A stretch of DNA of 53,249 nucleotides from Deltaproteobacteria bacterium (GTDB lineage: Bacteria; Desulfobacterota; Binatia; UTPRO1), in contig VBKW01000143.1 of assembly GCA_005879405.1 (NCBI GenBank), positions 1 to 53,249 of the forward strand. The letters are read 5' to 3'. Within the stretch, counting starts at the first letter, position 1. Each line of letters opens with the position of its first letter. The translations under genes were made by a program, and so were the position numbers. The notes under the pieces were generated by a model. The model was not told where the DNA came from and searched no databases. It saw only the letters and a list, made by a program, of their open reading frames with translations. Of this stretch, positions 2,146 through 50,166 are shown piece after piece.

Positions 2146-2243
2146 CGACCCGCGTCTCCCGTCCGGAGGCTGAAGCTTGCCGACGTCGCCGCATCGATCC
2201 GTTGCGGCGCCGGCGTCATCCCCGTCGCGCGGCAGATCTCGCC

Positions 2244-2258
2244 CGGCAGAGTTTGCCG
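2244..2258. promoter_or_regulatory. Palindrome CGGCAgagttTGCCG, candidate enhancer (UAS) for a sigma-54 activator
   Basis: Perfect CGGCA-N5-TGCCG inverted repeat 50 nt upstream of the sigma-54 promoter at 2309. The same palindrome is at 15489 and 37802. Confidence 0.5.
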
Positions 2259-2308: not shown

Positions 2309-2324
2309 CGGCACCCTGCTTGCT
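2309..2324 (+). promoter_or_regulatory. Sigma-54 (-24/-12) promoter
   Basis: CGGCACCCTGCTTGCT versus consensus TGGCAC-N5-TTGCW, with exact GG-N10-GC spacing. Lies 28 nt upstream of ATG 2353. Confidence 0.6.
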
Positions 2325-2352: not shown

Positions 2353-3300
2353 ATGCGCATCGATCCCCAGCGCGATACGATTCCCGCAGTGCGGCCGTCA
2401 TCGACCGGCGGCTCGTCGACCGGCTTCGCGAGCGCGCTCGCCAGCGTGCGCAGCGCGACCGACCCGAGCCTGCCCGCAGCGGCGGACCGTGGGCAGGTAG
2501 GAAAGGTACCGATCGCGCAGCAATGGGGTCAGTACGGCAAGGGCGCCGGCCCGGAAGGGTACGGTGCGCCGCCGGATCCGGCGCAATTCGCCGACGTGCC
2601 GATCGGTCCCCATGAGCCTGCGAGCCCGCTCAACCCGAGCGGCGTCACGACCACGCCCGGATTCACCGTCGACGGCTATACCGCGCGCGGGACGCCCATC
2701 CCGCCGGGCTTCTACAACCTCGCCTATTACAACTGGTACCTGCGCGAAGGCGGGACGCCGCTCGAAGGGTTCCCGCAGCTCGCCGACGGCGCGACGATTA
2801 CCGAGACGTACGGCAAGTTCGGTGACGGCGCGACGCGCGCCACGAGCTTCATCACCGCGCCGGCCGACACCACCGACCCCAGCGGCATGATGAGCGGCAC
2901 GGGTGGAGATCCCATCGCAGCCACGGGCGCCACGCCGCCGGCATTCGCGAACGTCGCTGACGCGTTGACGAACGCGCTCGACGTCGCGCGGACGGGCGCC
3001 GCCGGCTCTGCCGGTGCCGCCGTCTCGGCATCGCCGGACGAACCCGCTCCCTCTGCGACGACGGCGACGGCCGCGACGACCGCGACGATGGCGACCGCGA
3101 GCGCTCAGCGCGTCGTGGCGACGCCGTCGCGACCCGCCGCGTCCGAAATGACGTCGCGCGCCGGAAGCGGTGCGGGGCCGGCAACCGATCAGTCCGCCGC
3201 GGCGACGGTCGCGAGCGGCAGCGTCGCGTCGACGAACGACGTCGAGGCGGCGCTTCGCGCCGAGCTGACGACGCTGGTGCGCGATCTCATGCGCGCCTAG
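2353..3300 (+). CDS. Hypothetical protein (315 aa): disordered N-terminus, aromatic-rich core, Ala/Thr/Ser-rich tail
   Basis: ATG 2353 lies 8 nt after GGAGGAG. Strong GC3 bias in this frame. No signal peptide or TM seen and no family recognised. The TTG at 2302 (track start) would overlap the promoter. Confidence 0.6.
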   Translation: MRIDPQRDTIPAVRPSSTGGSSTGFASALASVRSATDPSLPAAADRGQVGKVPIAQQWGQYGKGAGPEGYGAPPDPAQFADVPIGPHEPASPLNPSGVTTTPGFTVDGYTARGTPIPPGFYNLAYYNWYLREGGTPLEGFPQLADGATITETYGKFGDGATRATSFITAPADTTDPSGMMSGTGGDPIAATGATPPAFANVADALTNALDVARTGAAGSAGAAVSASPDEPAPSATTATAATTATMATASAQRVVATPSRPAASEMTSRAGSGAGPATDQSAAATVASGSVASTNDVEAALRAELTTLVRDLMRA

Positions 3301-5882: not shown

Positions 5883-5898
5883 AGCAAGCGAGGTGCCA
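5883..5898 (-). promoter_or_regulatory. Sigma-54 promoter of the receiver-less activator gene
   Basis: The - strand reads TGGCACCTCGCTTGCT, a perfect consensus. It lies 41 nt upstream of ATG 5841, with AAGGAGGGG as SD. Confidence 0.75.
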
Positions 5899-6036
5899 GA
5901 AACTTGAACAACTCCCATAGTCAGCGTCACACGCCGCGCGACATCGAATTGTCAGGTAAATTTCGTGACACGACGCCTCGCATGGGATCGCGACGCCGTC
6001 CGCGAATGTGCGCTTCCGTACATTCCTGTCGCGCGA

Positions 6037-6052
6037 CGGCCAAAAATTGGCG
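6037..6052. promoter_or_regulatory. Palindrome-like CGGCCAaaaaTTGGCG, candidate enhancer (class B)
   Basis: About 140 nt upstream of the sigma-54 promoter at 5883..5898. Related sites at 42785 and 53069. Confidence 0.35.
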
Positions 6053-6072
6053 ACCGCCGCGACGGCGCGAGT

Positions 6073-6573
6073 TTACGCCCGCGCCGCCACACGCGACGGA
6101 ACGACGAGGAAGTCCGGCGGGCAGTGCGGCAGGTCGAGCACGATCTGCCGCGCGCGGCGCGTCCGTAGATCGACGACGACCGGCGCCATCAGATTGACCG
6201 TCATCAGCGTCGGGTCTCTCGGAATGGTGACGATGACGAGCAGCGCGATGTCGTTCGGATCGGTCTCGAGGAGACGCGCCGCGGTCTCGAGCGGCGGCTC
6301 GTAGCCGGCGACGAGCTCGCACGGATTGGCGACCGCGAACGCCAGCTCCGGATCGTCGATCGCGAGCAGCCATTTGAAGGGCGACCCCGGCCGATGCTCC
6401 AGCACGACGTAGCGCCGCAGTTGCGGGAACCCGACCAGACCCTGCGGGATCTCGACGATGCTCGCGCGCGAGATCTCGAACGACCCGAACCGTCGCGACC
6501 GGACGTGCAACGTCGGCGAGGGATCGACCTCGCGCGACGCATGCGCGGCGGTGCACTCAGTCGTGCTTGGCAT
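6073..6573 (-). CDS. fliW: Flagellar assembly factor FliW
   Basis: Contains RFGSFEISRASIVEIPQGLVGFPQLRRYVVLEH..PFKWLLAIDDPELAFAVANP, typical of FliW, and is adjacent to csrA. Start uncertain: ATG 6573 overlaps csrA by 17 nt, and TTG 6510 is an alternative. Confidence 0.85.
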   Translation of the reverse strand: MPSTTECTAAHASREVDPSPTLHVRSRRFGSFEISRASIVEIPQGLVGFPQLRRYVVLEHRPGSPFKWLLAIDDPELAFAVANPCELVAGYEPPLETAARLLETDPNDIALLVIVTIPRDPTLMTVNLMAPVVVDLRTRRARQIVLDLPHCPPDFLVVPSRVAARA

Positions 6574-6805
6574 TGCCGACCTCCAGCCACAGCTCGGCGG
6601 CGTCGGCGAGACGGTCCTCGCCCGCGAGCCGAGCCTTTTGATTCTGCTCTTCGATCGCGCGAAAGATCTCCTCGCGAAAGATGCGCACGTCCGCCGGCGC
6701 GGTCAGGCCGAGTCGCACCTGGCCGCCGCGGATCGCGAGCACCTGCACCCGCACGTCGTCGCCGAGGCGAATGGTTTCACCGATCTTCCGTGTCAATACC
6801 AACAT
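6557..6805 (-). CDS. csrA: Carbon storage regulator CsrA (flagellar, FliW-partner type)
   Basis: N-terminus MLVLTRKIGETIRLGDDVRVQVLAIRGGQVRLGLTAPADVRIFREEI. AGGAGGG SD upstream of the ATG. Confidence 0.95.
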   Translation of the reverse strand: MLVLTRKIGETIRLGDDVRVQVLAIRGGQVRLGLTAPADVRIFREEIFRAIEEQNQKARLAGEDRLADAAELWLEVGNAKHD

Positions 6806-6843
6806 GCCGCCCTCCTGGCAGGCGTCATCGTCGAACGATCAGG

Positions 6844-9991: not shown

Positions 9992-10879
9992 TCAGGCCTC
10001 CTCCGCGCCGTGCGGCGCCGGCGGCGCGACCGCCGTCGCGCCACCGTCAGGGGCGAGAACCGTCGACGGATCAACCGCTTGGCCGTCGCGGGTCACGGCG
10101 AAGTGGACGTGCGGACCGGTCGCGCGCCCCGTCGACCCCACCGTCGCGAGCACGTCGCCCGCGGCAACTTTCTGGCCGCGCTGGACCAGCGAGCGTTGGA
10201 CGTGGGCGTACGTGCTCACCACGTCGTCGGCGCGCACCTCGACGACGTTGCCCGCCTTGCCGCGCCGGCCGCTGAAGGTCACCTCGCCTGCCGCGACGGC
10301 GTGGATCGCGCTGCCGCGCGGCGCCGCCACGTCGATCCCGAGGTGGAGCGCGCGGGCGCCGGTGATGGGATCGCTGCGCACGCCGAAGCCCGACGTTACC
10401 CGTCCTTCGGCGCCGGCGACGAGCTGGCTCGCGACCGCGTTCTCGGCCGCCGTCGCCGCTCCGAGCCGATCCGAGTCCTCGCCGCCGCCGCTGCGGGTGG
10501 TCTCGTCGGCCGCGGCGATGCCACCGGGTGCCGCCGCCGTCTCGCCGTCGGCGGAGGTCGCCCCGTGCTCGCGGCGCTCGATCTGCGCCGCCAGCTGCTC
10601 CGCGAGCCCGAGGTGCGCGTTCTTCGTGATGCTGCGCGCCAGCTCGCTGTCGAACGCGCCGTCGAGGACCTTGTTCGCGGCGCTGTCGCCGCCGAAAAGG
10701 CCCGTGCTCGCGACCGTCTTCCGCATGGCGCCGATCACCTGCGCCACGAGCAGCGCTTCGAACTCGCGCGCGATCTCGAGCGGCGACTTGTGTCCCTGTC
10801 GATGCTGCTCGTCGATGCCTTGCGGCGTCGTCGGCAGGAGCGCCTCCGTACCGAGAGTGCCAATCGCAAGCGGGCTCAT
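9992..10879 (-). CDS. flgJ: FlgJ-type rod-binding domain fused to an M23 (LytM) peptidase domain
   Basis: N-terminal EIAREFEALLVAQVIGAMRKT (rod-binding). C-terminal HLGIDVAAPRGSAIHAVAAGEV...GSTGRATGPHVHFAV (M23 HxxxD/HxH). GGAGGA SD. Confidence 0.85.
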   Translation of the reverse strand: MSPLAIGTLGTEALLPTTPQGIDEQHRQGHKSPLEIAREFEALLVAQVIGAMRKTVASTGLFGGDSAANKVLDGAFDSELARSITKNAHLGLAEQLAAQIERREHGATSADGETAAAPGGIAAADETTRSGGGEDSDRLGAATAAENAVASQLVAGAEGRVTSGFGVRSDPITGARALHLGIDVAAPRGSAIHAVAAGEVTFSGRRGKAGNVVEVRADDVVSTYAHVQRSLVQRGQKVAAGDVLATVGSTGRATGPHVHFAVTRDGQAVDPSTVLAPDGGATAVAPPAPHGAEEA

Positions 10880-10892
10880 GCGGCGGTCCTCC

Positions 10893-12050
10893 TCACATCA
10901 GCTCGAGCTCGGCGTCGAGGGCGCCGGCGCTCTTGATCGCCTGTAGGACGGCGATCAGATCTTGTGGCGTGACGCCGAGGGCATTCAGGCCGCCTACGAG
11001 CTGTCCCAGGCTCACGGCGCCGCGTAGCAGCGCCAACCGCTGCTCTTTCCCTTGCTCGACGTTGATCGTGCTGTCCGGCACGACGACGGTCTCGCCGTTC
11101 GAGAACGGCGCCGGCTGCGACACGCCGAGGTCGGTCTTCACCTGGATCTGCAAGCTGCCGTGCGCGATCGCGACCGGCGCGATCCGCACGTCCTCGCCCA
11201 TGATGACGGTGCCGGTGCGCTCGTTGACGATCACTTTGGCGCGCCGGCTCGGCACCACCTCGAGGTTCTCGATCTCGGGCAGCATCAGCATCGCGCGCTC
11301 GTTCTCCAGGAGGTGGATCTCGATCGTCGCCGGATCGACCGCCTGCGCCGCGCCGTCGCCGAGCGCCGCGTTCACGGCGCTCGCGACGCGCGTCGCGGTC
11401 GTGACGTCGGCGTCGTGCAAGCTGAGGCGCACGATGCCGTCGGCCCCCAGGTTCACCGGCACCTCGCGCTCGACGATCGCGCCACCGGTCACGACACCCA
11501 CCGTCGGGTGGCCGCTCGTCGCCGACGCACCCGCCGCTTGCGCCGCATAGCCGCCGCCGAGTGAGACCGGACCTTGCGCGACCGCGTACACGTGCTGATC
11601 GGCGGCGGTGAGCGGCGTCAGGATCAACGTGCCGCCGCGCAGCGACTTGGCGTCGCCGATCGACGACAGCTGCACGTCGATGCGGTTCCCGGAGCGCGCG
11701 AACGGCGGCAGCGTCGCCGTCACGACGACTGCCGCCGCATTCTTCACCCGGATCTGCCGCGGATCGACCGAGATCGTGACGCCGCGGCGCCGCAGCATGC
11801 TCAAGATGCTCTGCACCGTGAAGAGCGACTGCTGCCCGTCGCCCGTCCCGTCGAGTCCGACGACGACACCGTACCCGGAGAGCTGATTCGACCGCACCCC
11901 CTCGACGTCGGCGATGTCCTTGATGCGCGCCGCCCGCGCGGGTGTCGCAGCAAGCACGACGAGCGCGAAGACCGCGAGCGTCACGGCGCCCATCGGAGGA
12001 TGCGCGCGAAGCGCGCACCGCACGGCGGCGAAATCAATCAAAACGGCCAT
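10893..12050 (-). CDS. flgI: Flagellar P-ring protein FlgI
   Basis: Signal peptide then IKDIADVEGVRSNQLSGYGVVVGLDGTGD. Start is ATG 12050 (overlaps the flgH stop) or ATG 11993. The track ORF to 12683 is an artefact. Confidence 0.9.
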   Translation of the reverse strand: MAVLIDFAAVRCALRAHPPMGAVTLAVFALVVLAATPARAARIKDIADVEGVRSNQLSGYGVVVGLDGTGDGQQSLFTVQSILSMLRRRGVTISVDPRQIRVKNAAAVVVTATLPPFARSGNRIDVQLSSIGDAKSLRGGTLILTPLTAADQHVYAVAQGPVSLGGGYAAQAAGASATSGHPTVGVVTGGAIVEREVPVNLGADGIVRLSLHDADVTTATRVASAVNAALGDGAAQAVDPATIEIHLLENERAMLMLPEIENLEVVPSRRAKVIVNERTGTVIMGEDVRIAPVAIAHGSLQIQVKTDLGVSQPAPFSNGETVVVPDSTINVEQGKEQRLALLRGAVSLGQLVGGLNALGVTPQDLIAVLQAIKSAGALDAELELM

Positions 12051-15370: not shown

Positions 15371-15386
15371 AGCAACGCTCGTGCCA
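15371..15386 (-). promoter_or_regulatory. Sigma-54 promoter of flgF-flgG-flgA-flgH-flgI-flgJ
   Basis: The - strand reads TGGCACGAGCGTTGCT, a perfect consensus. It lies 28 nt upstream of ATG 15342. Confidence 0.8.
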
Positions 15387-15488: not shown

Positions 15489-15503
15489 CGGCAAACTTTG
15501 CCG
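15489..15503. promoter_or_regulatory. Palindrome CGGCAaacttTGCCG, candidate enhancer (class A)
   Basis: Perfect CGGCA-N5-TGCCG 102 nt upstream of the flgF sigma-54 promoter. A degenerate second copy abuts it (about 15502..15517). Confidence 0.55.
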
Positions 15504-15565
15504 GGCGATTCTTGCCGCGTGCCCACGGTCGCGACGGCGCGCGCAGCCGACAGAGGCGCGTGCGG

Positions 15566-26145: not shown

Positions 26146-26203
26146 CCGTCCTCCCCTGGACGCGCGTCAGCTCCCTGACTCCCGCGGTCCAAGGGGGAGA
26201 ATC

Positions 26204-30455: not shown

Positions 30456-30470
30456 CGGCACGAATCGCCG
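30456..30470. promoter_or_regulatory. Class A-like palindrome CGGCAcgaatCGCCG (one mismatch)
   Basis: Lies 51 nt upstream of the fliK sigma-54 promoter, the same offset as site 2244 has to promoter 2309. It is part of the longer inverted repeat CCGCCGGC-N7-GCCGGCGG. Confidence 0.35.
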
Positions 30471-30493
30471 GCGGCGTGGAAAGTTCTGCCTAG

Positions 30494-33327: not shown

Positions 33328-33992
33328 GTGTCGCCGCCGGTCAGCGCCGCGCGAATGGCGCCCATCTGCCCGTCGACGCCGAGGTCGAGCTCGCCGTAGC
33401 GGCTCTCGACGACACAGCCGGTTTCGTCGAGCGCGACGTCCTCGACGAGATCGAGCTCCTTCACGTCCTCGAGCATGGCGCGCAGCCGCGGCAGCTCGTC
33501 GACGAGATAGCGATGCAACACGCTGCCGACGCGGATCCGGATGGTCTCGCGGTCGAGCGCGCCGAGTACCGCCTCGCGAATCATCGTCAGCCAGCGCTCC
33601 GGGTGCTCCGCGAGCTCGCGCTGCACCACCTTGCGCGCCACGCCGAGTGCCAGCTCGAGCAGCTCCTGCTCGTAGCGCGCGACGAGACGGCTGCGAAATT
33701 GCGCCACCTCCTCGACGGCGGTGGCAAAGCCTGCCGCGGCGCCGGCGAGCTCCGCCGCGGAGGCCGCTTTGCCGGCAGCGAAGCCGGCAGCGTAGCCCGC
33801 CTCGCGCGCCTCGACACGTGGGTCCGGCGGCTCCTCGGCCGCCGGTCGTGCGCCGTCGAGCGAGCGGCGCCCGTCGAAATCGGGAAACACGCTCGCGCCG
33901 CGTATCGTGCCGCTGATCCGCGGACCCGTGAGGGGCGCGAACTCACCGCCCACGCCGGGCACGCGTCGCGCCGCCGGATCAGACGAGGACAT
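33324..33992 (-). CDS. fliH: Flagellar assembly protein FliH
   Basis: C-terminal FliH/YscL-type region (LELALGVARKVVQRELAEHPERWLTMIREAV...RIRVGS). Lies between fliG and fliI with 4-nt and 14-nt overlaps. Confidence 0.8.
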   Translation of the reverse strand: MSSSDPAARRVPGVGGEFAPLTGPRISGTIRGASVFPDFDGRRSLDGARPAAEEPPDPRVEAREAGYAAGFAAGKAASAAELAGAAAGFATAVEEVAQFRSRLVARYEQELLELALGVARKVVQRELAEHPERWLTMIREAVLGALDRETIRIRVGSVLHRYLVDELPRLRAMLEDVKELDLVEDVALDETGCVVESRYGELDLGVDGQMGAIRAALTGGDT

Positions 33993-37680: not shown

Positions 37681-37696
37681 AGCAAGTTGCATTCCA
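37681..37696 (-). promoter_or_regulatory. Sigma-54 promoter of flgB-flgC-fliE-fliF-fliG-fliH-fliI-fliJ
   Basis: The - strand reads TGGAATGCAACTTGCT (GG and TTGCT conserved, exact spacing). It lies 27 nt upstream of ATG 37653. Confidence 0.6.
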
Positions 37697-37801
37697 CGAG
37701 AGCGCGCGCGCACTGCGGGACGCGATCGTCCAAGCTCGCGCCGTCACTCACTCGACGCCCTCGTCGCCGCGGGCATTTCGTTCCGTCCGTCAAAAGGCTG
37801 A

Positions 37802-37816
37802 CGGCAAGTTTTGCCG
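37802..37816. promoter_or_regulatory. Palindrome CGGCAagtttTGCCG, candidate enhancer (class A)
   Basis: Perfect CGGCA-N5-TGCCG 105 nt upstream of the flgB sigma-54 promoter, embedded in the larger inverted repeat CTGACGGCAA..TTGCCGGTGTCAG. Confidence 0.55.
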
Positions 37817-37913
37817 GTGTCAGACGGCCGACCGCTCTCGGCGCGGGGGCGCACGTTCTTCGCGGCGTCGGCAGGACGAGAACGGGTGCGCCTATGCCGG
37901 CGCGGGCGCGGGC

Positions 37914-39305
<1,392 letters not shown>

Positions 39306-39311
39306 TCCCCG

Positions 39312-40202
39312 TCAGCGCCCGCTCGGCGCTGCATGCGGCAACGTGAGGACGAACGTCGCGCCGCGCGCGCTCGGCCGCAGCGCCAGCGTGCCACCGTGCG
39401 CGGCGACGGCAGCGCGCGCGACCGCGAGGCCGAGACCCGTGCCGCGCTCCTTCGTGGTGAAGAACGGCGTGAAGACGCTCTCGGCGCTCGCCGCCGGAAC
39501 CCCCGGCCCGTCGTCGGCGACGACGAGCCGCAGCCAGCGCGGCGACGGCTCGAGCGCGATCACGAGCGTCCCGCTTCCGGCCATCGCCTCCGCGGCGTTG
39601 CGGACGAGGTTGTGCAACGCTTGCGCGAGGAGACGCCGGTCGACCGGCCAGGTGGCCGCGCGCGCACCGCGACGCTCGACCGTGACGTCGCCGAGCGCCG
39701 GCGCCGCCGCGGCGAGCACCTCGTCGACGAGGGCGCCCAGGTCCGTCGTCGCGAGACGCGGCTCGGGCAGCCGGGTGTAGTCGAGAATGTTCGTCACCAG
39801 ATGGTTCAGATCGGCGACGCCGCCCGCCACCTGCTCCGCGAGCCGCAGCGCCGACGGCTGCGCCCGCACCTCGTCGACGAGGAGCTTGATGCACAGCTCC
39901 ATCGCGCCGAGCGGATTGCGCACCTCGTGGGCGAGCGTCGCCGCCATCTCGCCCATCGCGGCGAGGCGGCCGTGGCGCAGCGCCTGCGTCTCGAGACACC
40001 GCTGCCGCTCGATGCTCGCGTCGAGCGCCCGCTTCTTGTCGTCGAGCTCGAGCCGCAGCGCGTCGGCGTAGGCTTGTAGCTCGCGATACTGCTCCTCGAG
40101 CGTCGTCGTCGCTTCGGTGAAGACGCGAAACGCGGCGTGCAGCTCGGCGAGCTGCCGCTCGCTCGGTCGTGCGACGCGGTCGACGGCGGCTTCCACGCTC
40201 AC
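39312..40202 (-). CDS. Cytoplasmic histidine kinase without a recognisable sensor domain (coiled coil + HisKA + HATPase_c), FlgS/FlrB-like
   Basis: H-box MAATLAHEVRNPLGAM, N-box HNLVRNAAEA, G1 DDGPGV, G2 GTGLGLAV. No TM segment. GTG 40202 overlaps the upstream stop (GTGA). Confidence 0.9.
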   Translation of the reverse strand: MSVEAAVDRVARPSERQLAELHAAFRVFTEATTTLEEQYRELQAYADALRLELDDKKRALDASIERQRCLETQALRHGRLAAMGEMAATLAHEVRNPLGAMELCIKLLVDEVRAQPSALRLAEQVAGGVADLNHLVTNILDYTRLPEPRLATTDLGALVDEVLAAAAPALGDVTVERRGARAATWPVDRRLLAQALHNLVRNAAEAMAGSGTLVIALEPSPRWLRLVVADDGPGVPAASAESVFTPFFTTKERGTGLGLAVARAAVAAHGGTLALRPSARGATFVLTLPHAAPSGR

Positions 40203-42688
40203 GGCGTCTCCCGGCGATTCTCGAACGGCTTGACGATCGTCTCGTAGGTTTCCGCGGCGGTCGCGACGCGGCGTTCGAGGGCGTCATGGCTGCGCGCCAG
40301 CTCCGCGTACCCGGCGCGCGCGGCGGCGCCGCCGTCGCCGGCACCGAGACGCGCCAGACGGTACTGAGCGCCCTCGGCGCTCGACTGATCGGCATAGCGC
40401 TCGGTCAGCTCGCGATACGCCGCGAGCGCCGCCGGAGCATCGCCCGTCGCCTCCGCCGACTCGGCGACGATGCGGAGCGCCGTGGCCGTGTCGGACGCCG
40501 CGAGCGGCGGCGAGCGCTCACCGTCGAGGGCCGCCCGCGCGAGCCGCAGCGCGACCGCCGGATCCGCCGTCCGCAGTCGCCGAGCGACGTCGAGTCGAAC
40601 GGTACGTGCCGTCGCCGGATCGAGCGCCGCCGCGGCGTCGGCGCTCTCGCCGGCGGCACGACCTTGCCCGAGCGCGGCGAGCGCCCGCGCGCGCAAGGCG
40701 GTCGCCTCCGCCGGCGCCGCGTTCCCACGCGTCCGCAACCATTCGTCGGCGACGGCAAGCGCCTGCGGCGGATTCGTCGCGAGCACCGCCCCGCCCCGTT
40801 CCTCCCAGAGCGCGTCCGGCGCGTCCTTGCCGAGCCGCTCGGCAAGCGCGCGCAGCACCGCGTCGCTCTCGACCCCGAGGCCGACGACGCGGTAGCTGCG
40901 CGCGAGCGCGATTTGATCCGCGGATGCGAGCAGCGCCGGTGCGAGGCCCTGATCGGCGACGATGGCCACCGCCTCGACGTCGGCGCCGCGACGAAGCGCC
41001 CGCGTCAACGCCTCGGTCGCGAGGCGCCGGCGCTCGTCGAGCGCTTTTGCCGAGCCGAGGCCGTCGAGGCGGCGAAGGCCCGTGGCGTCGTCGCCGCGCG
41101 CGACGTCGAGCTGCGCGAGCCCGAGCGTCGCGCGCGCCGCGAGGCGCGCTCCGAACCCGCCGGAGGCGAGCTCCGTCCAGCGGGCGCGCGCCGTCGCGTC
41201 GTCACCGGCGGCGGCCGCCGCGGCGGCGATGTCGGCGAGCACGACGCCGCTCGGCGGCGCGTCGGGAGCGGAGCGCAGCGCGTCCAGCATCGTGAGCGCG
41301 CGCCGCGGCTGCCCGTCGGCGAGCTGCTGCCGCGCTTGCACCCGGATCGTCTCCGGGTCGGCGAGGATCGCGGGCGGGCAGAGCTCCGGCAGACGCGCGA
41401 CTTGCGCCGACGCGTTGCCCGGCGGATCGGTCCCCAGCACGAGCGCCGCGCGGCCGCGCGTCGCGAGGCAGACGGCCAGCGCGTCACCCGCGGCAGCGCG
41501 CGCATACGCGTCGCGGGCACGCTCGACGGCGTCGCGCTCGCGCGCGACGTCGCCGATCAACGCGTCGATGATCGGGCGCGTCGGATCCTTCACGGCCTCT
41601 TGCGCGACGCCCTGCAGCTCGGCGTCGAAGCCGAGCGCGCGGTACGCGAGCGCAATGTTCAGACGGGCGCGCGACGCATCGAAGAACTTCGGCGCGCCGC
41701 GAAGCGCGCGGCGGTAGAGATCGATCGCCGGCAGCACGCGCCCGCTCGTCGCGCGCACGGCGAGCTCGCGATCGGCCGCGAGGTAGAGCGCGGCCGGCTC
41801 GTCGCCGACGATCGCCGGCAGCGTCGCCGGGTCGGCGGCGGTCGCGAGCGCGCGCGCCAGCGCCGCGAGGTCGGCACGGCTCGCGTACGCCGGCGCTCCG
41901 GGATCGGGAGCGCAACACGCAACGGTGCCGAGCCGCCGCCACGCGCACGCCCGTTTCGGCCCCGCCCGGCCGTCGCGCGCCTGCGAGCCTTCCGCCGATG
42001 CCGCGGCCGGGGGCGCCGCCGTCGGCGCCACGAGTGGCGCGCGAGATTCCGCAGCCGCCGACGCGATGCCGTCATGAGGCGTCGCCTGCGGCGCCGGTGC
42101 GCGGCCGGCGCTCGGGTTCTTCGCCGGCGCAGCAGACGGCGCCGTGACGGCGAGCGCCGCGAGAACGGCCGGCCGGCTGATGGCGGTAGCGGCCTGCGGC
42201 GCGACAGCCTGCTCCGGCGCCGGACGCACGGCGGATCGGGCGGCGCGCGCGACGACTCTACCGGCGGGCGTCGGCGTCGGCTGCGGCGCCGCGATGAGAT
42301 CGATCACGAGTCGCGGCGGGTCGCGCTCGGAATAGGCATGCACGGCGGCCGGCGCCGCGCTGGTCGTGATGCGGATCGCGGCGTTGCCACGCGCCGCCGG
42401 CGCGAGGACGACGCGCGTCCCCGCGATCGTCGCCGTGTCGTCGCCGCGGAACGTCGTCGTGTACAGCGTCGGATCCACGAGCGCCCGCGGCACGACGACC
42501 TCGACGCCCGAGCTGGTGCGCGACGCGATCGCGCCGACGACCGGCTCGTTGATGAAGAACACGATCTCCTCGCGGTCCTCCAACGTGAGGAAGTGCGGCG
42601 GCGAAGCGAAGAGCGCCTCGCCGTACGCGCGCTCCGTGAGGAGCAGCAGCACGAGCACGGACAGAGCGAGTCGTCCCAGTGACCGCAT
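40199..42688 (-). CDS. Secreted AMIN-domain protein with Pro/Ala linker and long TPR-like helical-repeat region (829 aa)
   Basis: Signal peptide MRSLGRLALSVLVLLLLTERAYG and AMIN-like hallmark ..IRITTSAAPAAVHAYSERDPPRLVIDL. The rest is Ala/Leu/Arg-rich repeats. ATG 42688 chosen because the track start 42715 overlaps the promoter. Confidence 0.7.
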   Translation of the reverse strand: MRSLGRLALSVLVLLLLTERAYGEALFASPPHFLTLEDREEIVFFINEPVVGAIASRTSSGVEVVVPRALVDPTLYTTTFRGDDTATIAGTRVVLAPAARGNAAIRITTSAAPAAVHAYSERDPPRLVIDLIAAPQPTPTPAGRVVARAARSAVRPAPEQAVAPQAATAISRPAVLAALAVTAPSAAPAKNPSAGRAPAPQATPHDGIASAAAESRAPLVAPTAAPPAAASAEGSQARDGRAGPKRACAWRRLGTVACCAPDPGAPAYASRADLAALARALATAADPATLPAIVGDEPAALYLAADRELAVRATSGRVLPAIDLYRRALRGAPKFFDASRARLNIALAYRALGFDAELQGVAQEAVKDPTRPIIDALIGDVARERDAVERARDAYARAAAGDALAVCLATRGRAALVLGTDPPGNASAQVARLPELCPPAILADPETIRVQARQQLADGQPRRALTMLDALRSAPDAPPSGVVLADIAAAAAAAGDDATARARWTELASGGFGARLAARATLGLAQLDVARGDDATGLRRLDGLGSAKALDERRRLATEALTRALRRGADVEAVAIVADQGLAPALLASADQIALARSYRVVGLGVESDAVLRALAERLGKDAPDALWEERGGAVLATNPPQALAVADEWLRTRGNAAPAEATALRARALAALGQGRAAGESADAAAALDPATARTVRLDVARRLRTADPAVALRLARAALDGERSPPLAASDTATALRIVAESAEATGDAPAALAAYRELTERYADQSSAEGAQYRLARLGAGDGGAAARAGYAELARSHDALERRVATAAETYETIVKPFENRRETP

Positions 42689-42710
42689 ACCAGGAAAAAA
42701 TTGCCGGTCG

Positions 42711-42726
42711 AGCAACGCTCGTGCCG
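42711..42726 (-). promoter_or_regulatory. Sigma-54 promoter of the AMIN-TPR / kinase / response-regulator operon
   Basis: The - strand reads CGGCACGAGCGTTGCT, identical to the flgF promoter in 15 of 16 positions. It lies 22 nt upstream of ATG 42688. Confidence 0.65.
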
Positions 42727-42802: not shown

Positions 42803-42811
42803 GCGCGACCG

Positions 42812-43414
42812 TCAGAAGGTTGACGACGGCGCCGCGCTCGCGGGGTCGCCGGCGAGACTCGACTCCGCCCGGCTCCAGGCGCGCAGCGCGGGAGCGAGCT
42901 CGTGCGCGAGCAGGGTCGACAGCTCACCCCAGGCGCGCCGCTCTTGCGCGCTGAGCAGCGCAGGAGCGACGGTCTGCACCGGCTCGACGGCCTCGGGCAC
43001 GACGGCGCCGTCGAGCGTCGCCACCTGCTGCTCGAGGACGAGCGCGAGACGCAGCTCCTCCATCAGCGCCGCCAGGAGCGCGTTGGCGTCGCGATCGTCG
43101 CCGGCGGCGAAGTGGGCGACCACGAGATCGACCTTCGACGCGACGACCTCGACGGCCGCCGCCAGCTCGGCGCGCATGCAGCGCGCGAACGCCGCCGGCG
43201 TCGACGTGCCGAGCACCAGCCGCCGCACGCTCCCGGCGCCGCGCCGCGCGTAACGCTCCTCGTCGCCGGCGCTGAAGGTGATACCGTCGATCTCGACGGT
43301 CGTGACGATCTCGTCCGGGTCGACGTGGACGCCGAGAGCCTCGATCATCTCGCCGACCGTCGCACCCACCGCCTCGACCGCGCCCACCGCGCGCTCATTG
43401 ATGAAGACGTCCAT
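42812..43414 (-). CDS. Hypothetical protein (200 aa), last gene of the glycosyltransferase operon
   Basis: Strong GC3 bias. The ATG overlaps the GT9 gene end by 20 nt. The N-terminus MDVFINERAVGAVEAVGATVGEMIEALG is vaguely beta-grasp-like. No family recognised. Confidence 0.7.
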   Translation of the reverse strand: MDVFINERAVGAVEAVGATVGEMIEALGVHVDPDEIVTTVEIDGITFSAGDEERYARRGAGSVRRLVLGTSTPAAFARCMRAELAAAVEVVASKVDLVVAHFAAGDDRDANALLAALMEELRLALVLEQQVATLDGAVVPEAVEPVQTVAPALLSAQERRAWGELSTLLAHELAPALRAWSRAESSLAGDPASAAPSSTF

Positions 43415-48991: not shown

Positions 48992-49154
48992 CGGGATTTC
49001 GTGCTCGAAGTGCGCGACATGTTTCCGCCGCTCGACGGGTCGCCGCATGCCGCGGCCGGAAATCTGTGCCGCCGTCGCGCCGCCGTCAGCGAATTGACAG
49101 CCGCCCGAGCACCCGTCCCTGCGGCGTCACCGCGTCGCTTCGCTGCCGATAGGA

Positions 49155-49245
49155 CGGCGGCAAGTTGCAGGCCAGAGCGGCCGCGGCGGGGTCGAGTTGC
49201 AGGCCAGAGCGGCGCGGCGGGTACTGGGTCGAGTTGCGAGCCCGA
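49155..49245. repeat. Tandem ~32-37-bp repeats (about 2.5 copies) with core AGTTGCAGGCCAGAGCGGC
   Basis: The core is exact at 49163..49181 and 49195..49213. A degenerate third copy (GAGTTGCGAGCC) starts near 49231. The array lies 170-250 nt upstream of the glycosyltransferase-operon sigma-54 promoter. Confidence 0.8.
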
Positions 49246-49778: not shown

Positions 49779-50166
49779 CGACCACCGGCACGCCGTGCCG
49801 CAGGATGTCGCGGAACGCGCTCGCGACGATGTCGAGGAGACGCGAGACCTGGTCGAGGTGGCGCACGCTCTTCTGCCGGTTCGCCTCGACGAGGTGCTGC
49901 AGCATGAACTGGTAGAGGCGCTCGAGGTCGGCGGCGATCTGACCACCGGCGGCGTGGTCGAGCGTGTGGAGCAGCTCGGCGATGATGGCCTGCGCGCGGC
50001 CGAGGTCGTACCCGAAGCGACCGATGTCGTTCGCGGCGAGATTGGCGCGCGCCTGCGCCAGGAACTTCAAGCCGCCGTCGAACATGAGGAGCAGCAGGCG
50101 GCCGCGGTCCGCCGTCCCAACCTGCGCCTGCTGGTATCGCGCCGCCGTCGATTGCGCGCCGATCAT
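49768..50166 (-). CDS. fliS: Flagellin-specific chaperone FliS
   Basis: Contains AARYQQAQVGTADRGRLLLLMFDGGLKFL and IAADLERLYQFMLQHLVEAN. Confidence 0.9.
   Translation of the reverse strand: MIGAQSTAARYQQAQVGTADRGRLLLLMFDGGLKFLAQARANLAANDIGRFGYDLGRAQAIIAELLHTLDHAAGGQIAADLERLYQFMLQHLVEANRQKSVRHLDQVSRLLDIVASAFRDILRHGVPVVDAA

Follow-up and report, generated by a model that had tools for sequence, protein, structure and literature searches.

Which protein reads the short palindrome CGGCA-N5-TGCCG, found upstream of several sigma-54 promoters in the flagellar gene cluster of an uncultured bacterium that encodes two different sigma-54 activators? A first-pass annotation of this locus had proposed the palindrome as an enhancer for one of the two. 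Here, copies of the palindrome were counted, aligned with those of relatives, and compared with the DNA-binding helices of both activators and with the sites of described flagellar regulators.

A flagellar gene cluster encoding two sigma-54 activators

The window (the whole stretch of 53,249 nucleotides analyzed) is one large 53-kb flagellar gene cluster, 71% GC, with nearly all genes on the minus strand. From high to low coordinates, fliC-flaG-fliD-fliS and a set of glycosyltransferase genes are followed by an operon encoding an 838-aa protein without a family, a histidine kinase, and a receiver-AAA+-HTH sigma-54 activator. Next are flgB-flgC-fliE-fliF-fliG-fliH-fliI, fliK-flgD-flgE, fliL-fliM-fliN-fliOP-fliR-flhB-flhA-flhF-flhG-fliA, flgF-flgG-flgA-flgH-flgI-flgJ-flgM-flgN-flgK-flgL, csrA-fliW, and finally the gene for a 393-aa sigma-54 activator without a receiver domain (Table 1). 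The positions of flgI, flgM, and csrA were taken from genes called on contigs of strain variants and relatives, not from open reading frames of the window itself. The organism is uncultured and known from metagenomes alone; a 100% identical FlhA was found only on two soil metagenome contigs, and the nearest genome is a groundwater metagenome-assembled genome, or MAG (JACQEO01, "Deltaproteobacteria bacterium," locus L003), in which the response-regulator activator is 82% identical.

Several other features of the cluster can be recorded. FlgJ (9992..10879, minus strand) has its rod-binding domain fused to an M23 peptidase and not to a glucosaminidase. The csrA-fliW pair (about 6557..6838, minus strand) follows flgL, with the csrA reading frame inferred from gene calls on relative L163. 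The 838-aa protein (40199..42715, minus strand) has no Pfam or NCBIfam match and is the product of the first gene in the sigma-54-dependent kinase/regulator operon; an 870-aa reading frame occupies the corresponding place in L003.

Table 1. Putative regulatory elements, activators, and target gene in the window
Feature	Position	Strand	Sequence or remark
Putative composite ftr-type enhancer upstream of flgF	15489..15517	-	Palindrome CGGCAAAGTTTGCCG (15489..15503) plus promoter-distal half-site CGGCA (15504..15517)
Predicted sigma-54 (-24/-12) promoter of flgF-flgG-flgA-flgH-flgI-flgJ	15372..15386	-	TGGCACGAGCGTTGC; conserved in relatives
Putative composite ftr-type enhancer upstream of flgB	37802..37830	-	Palindrome CGGCAAAACTTGCCG (37802..37816) plus distal half-site CGGCC
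Predicted sigma-54 promoter of flgB-flgC-fliE-fliF... operon	37682..37696	-	TGGAATGCAACTTGC; identical in L003
Putative composite ftr-type enhancer upstream of orphan gene	2230..2258	+	CGGCAGATCTCGCC + CGGCAGAGTTTGCCG; conserved in L163, L165, and L166
Predicted sigma-54 promoter of orphan gene	2309..2323	+	CGGCACCCTGCTTGC; conserved in relatives
Fourth perfect CGGCA-N5-TGCCG	49786..49800	.	CGGCACGCCGTGCCG; inside fliS coding region; GC-rich spacer
Weaker composite upstream of fliK	30456..30490	-	GGCAGAACTTTCC (30478..30490) plus one-mismatch copy (30456..30470)
Weak ftr-like site	49058..49070	-	GGCACAGATTTCC; 66 nt upstream of sigma-54 promoter of glycosyltransferase/TPR gene
ftr-like site	42693..42705	-	GGCAATTTTTTCC; directly 3' of -12 element of kinase/regulator operon sigma-54 promoter (42712..42725), over start site
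GTCA-N6-TGAC	37789..37802	.	CCGTCAGCCTTTTGACGG; abuts flgB dyad; conserved in L003
GTCA-N6-TGAC	42811..42824		Upstream of kinase/regulator operon; conserved in L003
GTCA-N6-TGAC	49085..49098		Upstream of glycosyltransferase gene; conserved in L003
GTCA-N6-TGAC	26166..26179		In fliL leader
Response-regulator sigma-54 activator	37914..39305	-	REC + AAA+ + HTH_8; proposed reader of palindrome
Predicted cognate histidine kinase	39312..40202	-	HisKA + HATPase_c domain matches
Second sigma-54 activator, 393 aa	4660..5841	-	No receiver domain; HTH_8; FleQ-type recognition helix
Orphan gene, 315-aa lineage-specific protein	2353..3300	+	Predicted enhancer target

Number and position of the palindromes

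The first-pass annotation had listed perfect palindromes at 2244..2258, 15489..15503, and 37802..37816 and a one-mismatch copy upstream of fliK at 30456..30470. All four are present, and the gaps it gave to the corresponding sigma-54 promoters (50 nt for the orphan gene, 102 nt for flgF, 105 nt for flgB, and 51 nt for fliK) are correct from the sequence. Its assertion that no other perfect copy exists, coding or non-coding, fails on a fourth copy within fliS, which also contradicts its title statement that the palindrome occurs only upstream of sigma-54 promoters. No sigma-54-like promoter was found within 600 nt downstream of the fliS copy. One chance match is plausible at 71% GC, and this copy probably is one, outside the system.

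Could the remaining copies also be chance matches in a 71% GC genome, as the fliS copy does appear to be? This explanation is effectively refuted. The four perfect matches in the window compare with 0.16 expected, none of 100 shuffles reached four, and orthologous sites are conserved at all 10 of the relatives' positions examined. The three intergenic copies all lie 50 to 105 nt upstream of GG-N10-GC promoters, when about 2% of the window falls 40 to 160 nt upstream of such promoters, and they fit an extended 15-nt dyad, CGGCAAA-N-TTTGCCG, with zero, one, and one mismatches. Each also belongs to a 29-nt composite, CGGC(A/C)-N9-CGGCA-N5-TGCCG, in which an additional half-site lies 14 nt further out on the promoter-distal side. 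All three intergenic sites have CCGGCA as their promoter-distal arm.

Arms are conserved, while spacers and distances vary

Orthologous flgF promoters were compared first. Metagenome contigs from six relatives (L083-L090), with FlgF proteins 98, 91, 87, 85, 72, and 60% identical to that of the window, all carry the dyad. The arms CGGCA/TGCC are invariant among them, with the last arm reading TGCCC in L087, and the spacers vary (AAGTT, AAGTC, AATCT, AGTCT, GCTCT, and GATCC). The distance from dyad to promoter in these relatives is 117, 63, 150, 66, or 56 nt, a range that leaves no fixed helical phasing, so the "about five helical turns" separating the offsets in the first-pass annotation imposes no constraint.

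The other two loci gave similar results. At flgB, the sequence separating this gene from the regulator gene has diverged in L003, yet the block CACCGGCAAAA(C/G)TTGCCGTCAG(C/G)CTTTTGACGG and the promoter TGGAATGCAACTTGC are intact; the distal half-site is CGGCC in the window and CGGCA in this relative. Orthologues of the orphan gene in three relatives have CGGCAGAGTTTTCCG, CGGCAGAATCTGCCG, or CGGCAGAAACTGCCG, located about 43 nt upstream of a GGCA-N6-TTGC promoter that is itself conserved. The strict dyad occurred eight times in 112 kb of DNA from these relatives, always at the orthologous position, with no off-target copies. When sites from the window and relatives were combined, 13 of 13 fit the composite CGGC(A/C)-N9-CGGCA-N5-T(G/T)CC(G/C), and the extra half-site was always promoter-distal. 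This pattern, in which the arms are fixed while the spacer is free and the distance flexible, is typical of enhancers bound by protein and not of RNA hairpins.

Related elements extend beyond this lineage. In Nitrospirota, GGMAAA-NN-TTKCC sites, often in tandem, are found 115 to 135 nt upstream of the flgB sigma-54 promoter, beside the gene for the orthologous regulator.

A further explanation is that these repeats are hairpins or REP elements ending glgA, a 160-aa reading frame, and the regulator gene, or else operators of an unrelated repressor. Each palindrome does lie 60 to 100 nt past the stop codon of the preceding gene and can form a stem of 5 to 6 bp. Terminator calling, however, placed no terminator at any palindrome, no T-run follows any of them, and their folding energies are ordinary (z of about −1.2). 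The arms are conserved as sequence, with compensatory changes absent; three unrelated loci share one arm sequence, which is also found upstream of flgB in other phyla; and the orientation of the composite follows the downstream promoter, never the upstream gene. There are just three intergenic copies in 53 kb, all promoter-linked. Hairpin, REP, or unrelated operator functions are very improbable. The palindrome is almost certainly a DNA docking site for a flagellar gene activator.

The response regulator combines a canonical receiver with a FlbD-type recognition helix

Of special interest is which of the two activators would occupy this site. The best NCBIfam match of the response regulator is the FlbD model (NF050807), at 425.6 bits, ahead of NtrC and AtoC and under the model's cut-off of 750. 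The receiver is canonical, with the DD, D57, T, and K residues all present, and a partner kinase gene is adjacent. Based on the score, the receiver, and the kinase, this regulator is not a FlbD equivalog.

The DNA-binding region gave a different picture. Although overall identity to FlbD is 44%, the helix-turn-helix is near-identical (NNRSHAAKVLGISVRTLRNKLAEY in the regulator versus GNRTHAANILGISIRTLRNKLKEY in FlbD), and the recognition helix reads LGISVRTLRNKLAEY compared to LGISIRTLRNKLKEY in four named FlbD proteins, or ISVRTLRNKL versus ISIRTLRNKL. The comparison set consisted of database proteins named FlbD by NCBI (Caulobacter and Phenylobacterium), retrieved with an approximate FlbD query; a homologue search with the DNA-binding domain of the regulator alone returned short fragments and no FlbD. 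The same RTLRNKL-type helix is found in the orthologues of the regulator from Nitrospirota, Nitrospinota, and SAR324. Overall, FleR of Pseudomonas resembles the regulator just as closely (49% identity), yet has a different recognition helix (SPRTLRYKL), as does Marinobacter FleR. Related regulator fragments have been annotated as FlrC by JGI.

These comparisons suggest that the response regulator pairs FlrC/FleR-type input with FlbD-type DNA specificity. The proposal of the first-pass annotation, an enhancer for one of the two encoded activators, is supported in these computational tests by position, by arm conservation, and by the match to the FlbD ftr consensus. We consider it probable that the palindromes are ftr-type enhancers, read at sigma-54 promoters by this response regulator of the FlrC/FleR/FlbD family.

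A second dyad is probably read by the FleQ-like activator

A second motif, GTCA-N6-TGAC (extended form, CGTCA-N6-TGACGG), occurs four times in the window versus 0.5 expected, a count reached by 1 of 100 shuffles, and all four copies adjoin sigma-54 promoters. The published FleQ box of Pseudomonas is GTCaNTAAAtTGAC (PMC6120874). The GTCA motif resembles this box, and CGGCA-N5-TGCCG is a different sequence. Among the fetched loci, the nearest relatives of the 393-aa activator are FleQ-type proteins, and its recognition helix groups with FleQ of Pseudomonas, Marinobacter, and Nitrospirota (IRRTTLVEKMRK), not with FlbD; it lacks the N-terminal FleQ domain. The GTCA motif is thus probably read by the 393-aa FleQ-like activator and, by elimination, the CGGCA dyad would fall to the response regulator.

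An opposing assignment, in which the CGGCA enhancer is read by the 393-aa activator or by a hetero-oligomer instead of the response regulator alone, deserves consideration. An HTH_8 domain is present in both activators. In addition, the two kinds of dyad are directly adjacent at flgB and separated by 14 nt at the glycosyltransferase promoter, an arrangement by which both activators may act at one promoter, and hetero-oligomeric flagellar activators exist, such as FleQ/FleT of Rhodobacter sphaeroides. Against this assignment stand the FleQ-type helix of the 393-aa activator, the match of the FleQ box to GTCA-N6-TGAC and not to CGGCA-N5-TGCCG, and the lack of any GTCA-N6-TGAC box at the orphan-gene and flgF sites. 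On balance it is unlikely, and the response regulator is retained below as the probable reader of the CGGCA dyad.

Some features of the second activator and its motif are recorded here as observations. About 41 residues precede the AAA+ domain of the 393-aa protein; homologues of 483 to 543 aa in Nitrospirota and Pseudomonas carry an N-terminal domain. Relatives L163 and L166 have a conserved version of this truncated form (394 to 398 aa). The gene has its own sigma-54 promoter (5884..5898), and upstream of it, at 5940..6060, blocks including the palindrome GTCACGAWWTTTACGTGAC, GACAGGAATGTACGG, and TCGCCAAWTTTTGGCC are kept in three relatives; none of these blocks matches the ftr or GTCA-N6-TGAC motif. 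A third candidate motif, GCCA-N5-TGGC, noted at the promoters of the 393-aa activator and the 838-aa operon and at the window end, was dropped after two copies were found versus 0.77 expected; the block containing it is nevertheless conserved upstream of the 393-aa activator gene. In a Nitrospirota MAG (SZUA-350, locus L009), GGGCAAAATCTTCC lies upstream of flgB at about 11380..11420, with GTCAATTAAGTGAC coming 6 nt after it, a layout of two motifs that is also seen at flgB in the window.

Weaker sites suggest additional targets and autorepression

Relaxing the pattern to GGCA-N4-TT(G/T)CC yielded nine strand matches in the window versus 0.28 expected, including the three main sites and further matches at fliK (30478..30490), at the glycosyltransferase promoter, and at the kinase/regulator operon. 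One match, at 33723 inside the fliH coding sequence, is probably due to chance. Upstream of fliK, both elements of a weaker composite are partly conserved in L003. The weak site at 49058..49070, 14 nt from the GTCA-N6-TGAC box at 49085..49098, is identical in L003, as is the box.

The ftr-like site over the start of the kinase/regulator operon is conserved in position in L003, at 6680..6692 (GGCAAAAATTTCC). By analogy to Caulobacter ftr4 at fliF, it may be a site of autorepression.

Also in the glycosyltransferase region, two to three direct copies of a sigma-54-like box, CGCTCTGGCCTGCAACT(C/T)G..., were seen upstream of the promoter region (49150..49245, minus strand), one of which matches TGGC-N7-TTGC (49160..49174). 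These boxes (49150-49240) were not called as a tandem repeat by Tandem Repeats Finder.

A lineage-specific gene as a predicted enhancer target

One of the three main sites precedes an orphan gene, which is real by the evidence of its GC3 of 0.85 and 33 homologues. In the relatives' loci, this gene always has glgA on one side and a HAD hydrolase gene on the other, and in every case the ftr composite and a sigma-54 promoter precede it. Conservation covers the N-terminal ~170 residues of the protein; a low-complexity stretch of Ala, Thr, Ser, and Pro makes up the C-terminal half. There is no match to the protein in Pfam or NCBIfam. It may be an unrecognized flagellar component or export substrate.

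A model for enhancer use, and its implications

Taking the response regulator as the likely reader, a sequence of events can be proposed from the domains and sites described above. The adjacent kinase would pair with the regulator, which would use its C-terminal Fis-type helix-turn-helix to bind each dyad as a dimer, with the third CGGCA half-site, 14 nt further out, probably aiding nucleation of the active oligomer. After phosphorylation, the bound regulator would loop to sigma-54 holoenzyme at the −24/−12 promoter 50 to 105 nt downstream, and ATP hydrolysis would open the promoters of flgB-fliE-fliF..., flgFGAHIJ, and the lineage-specific orphan gene. The regulator would probably act also via the weaker sites at fliK and a glycosyltransferase gene.

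No new mechanism is revealed by the palindromes. What they provide, for an uncultured lineage from soil and groundwater, is a regulon map of the flagellar cluster that can be tested, in which flgB, flgF, the orphan gene, and probably fliK would be under a kinase/regulator checkpoint, and other promoters would probably be under the FleQ-like activator. In addition, the FlbD ftr code (helix ...RTLRNKL..., site CGGCA-N5-TGCCG) appears not to be peculiar to Caulobacter, but to travel with canonical two-component regulators of the FlrC type in distant phyla, and could be useful for annotating sigma-54 flagellar regulons in metagenomes.

A more speculative idea, offered tentatively, is that promoters of this cluster use a two-letter enhancer code, in which the ftr dyad is read by the FlrC/FlbD-like regulator and GTCA-N6-TGAC by the truncated FleQ-like activator. 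If this were the case, two different AAA+ activators would have to assemble next to each other, or form a mixed ring, at a single promoter, the ftr-like site on the kinase/regulator operon would give FlbD-style autorepression, and the third half-site would define an asymmetric three-half-site architecture undescribed for ftr. The ftr core would have been kept across Alphaproteobacteria, Desulfovibrio, Nitrospirota, and this lineage, which, if true, would place it among the most ancient enhancer-activator pairs.

Comparison with known flagellar regulators

The kinase/regulator pair resembles FlrBC of Vibrio, FleSR of Pseudomonas, and FlgSR of Campylobacter, in which kinase and regulator genes adjoin basal-body genes and sigma-54 drives rod genes, as here. 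The window fits this type: within the flagellar cluster, a sensor kinase gene lies beside the gene for a receiver-AAA+(GAFTGA)-HTH regulator. Among the best genome matches to the regulator from beyond the lineage are FleR proteins of Pseudomonas and Marinobacter, at 44 to 50% identity. The recognition helix of gammaproteobacterial FleR/FlrC (PRTLRYKL) is unlike that of the window regulator, and no GGCA-N5-TGCC site was seen after the fleR genes of Pseudomonas or Marinobacter in the fetched loci. V. cholerae FlrC binds downstream of its promoters. A GGCAGCCGYTGCC that recurs in many loci of Pseudomonas, ~4.3 kb downstream of fleR, was set aside since estimated gene lengths placed it inside fliH/fliI coding sequence. 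FlgR of H. pylori is without a DNA-binding domain (PMC3930126).

A parallel for the DNA site is found in Desulfovibrio vulgaris. There, DVU1063, a flagellar regulator homologous to FlbD, was assigned GGCAxxxxTGCC by DAP-chip, and this motif was conserved upstream of flagellar genes of related species (PMC3333781). Like the window regulator, DVU1063 is a response regulator that depends on sigma-54, and its GGCA...TGCC dyad is found upstream of flagellar genes, but its receiver is reported as atypical.

The DNA site also resembles ftr, the element bound by FlbD in Caulobacter. The FlbD site of Caulobacter crescentus is CCCGGCAxxxxxTGCCGGG, as quoted by Rajeev et al. (PMC3333781). FlbD uses ftr sites to activate flagellar genes of the middle and late classes, and ftr4 to repress fliF (PMC3930126); it has an unorthodox receiver and is controlled by FliX (PMC7064773). 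In the flbD locus of Caulobacter segnis (L167), the flgK-flbG intergenic region contains CCCGGCA-AAAAA-CGCCG, CGGCG-AAATC-TGCCGGGG, and GGGCA-GGGTT-CGCCGGGG near a sigma-54 promoter. All three intergenic sites of the window match the CGGCA/TGCCG core of ftr at 10 of 10 positions with the same 5-nt spacing. They lie at 50, 102, and 105 nt from GG-N10-GC promoters, compared to 56 to 150 nt at flgF in relatives; alignments of relatives, with 13 composites, show fixed arms and a free spacer; and the same DNA encodes an activator with the FlbD-type DNA-reading helix, although that protein falls outside the FlbD equivalog model (NF050807). Shared with the FlbD system are thus the dyad core, the spacer length, sigma-54 promoters of rod, hook, and basal-body genes, and a nearly identical recognition helix, and the weaker copy over the start site of the regulator operon recalls repression by FlbD at ftr4.

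There are also differences. The outer CC/GG of the 19-bp ftr consensus is only partly present, its outermost C/G positions not being conserved, and FlbD has an unorthodox receiver and FliX in place of the canonical receiver and partner kinase seen here. The enhancer role proposed by the first-pass annotation stands; that the site belongs to the already described ftr type had gone unrecognized. The element shares its core and spacing with ftr and is not new. It is best described as a putative ftr-type enhancer, a class known from work on Caulobacter in the 1990s that appears here in a new lineage, with two modest variations (an A/T-rich spacer and a third half-site 14 nt to the distal side) and a proposed pairing with a canonical two-component regulator.
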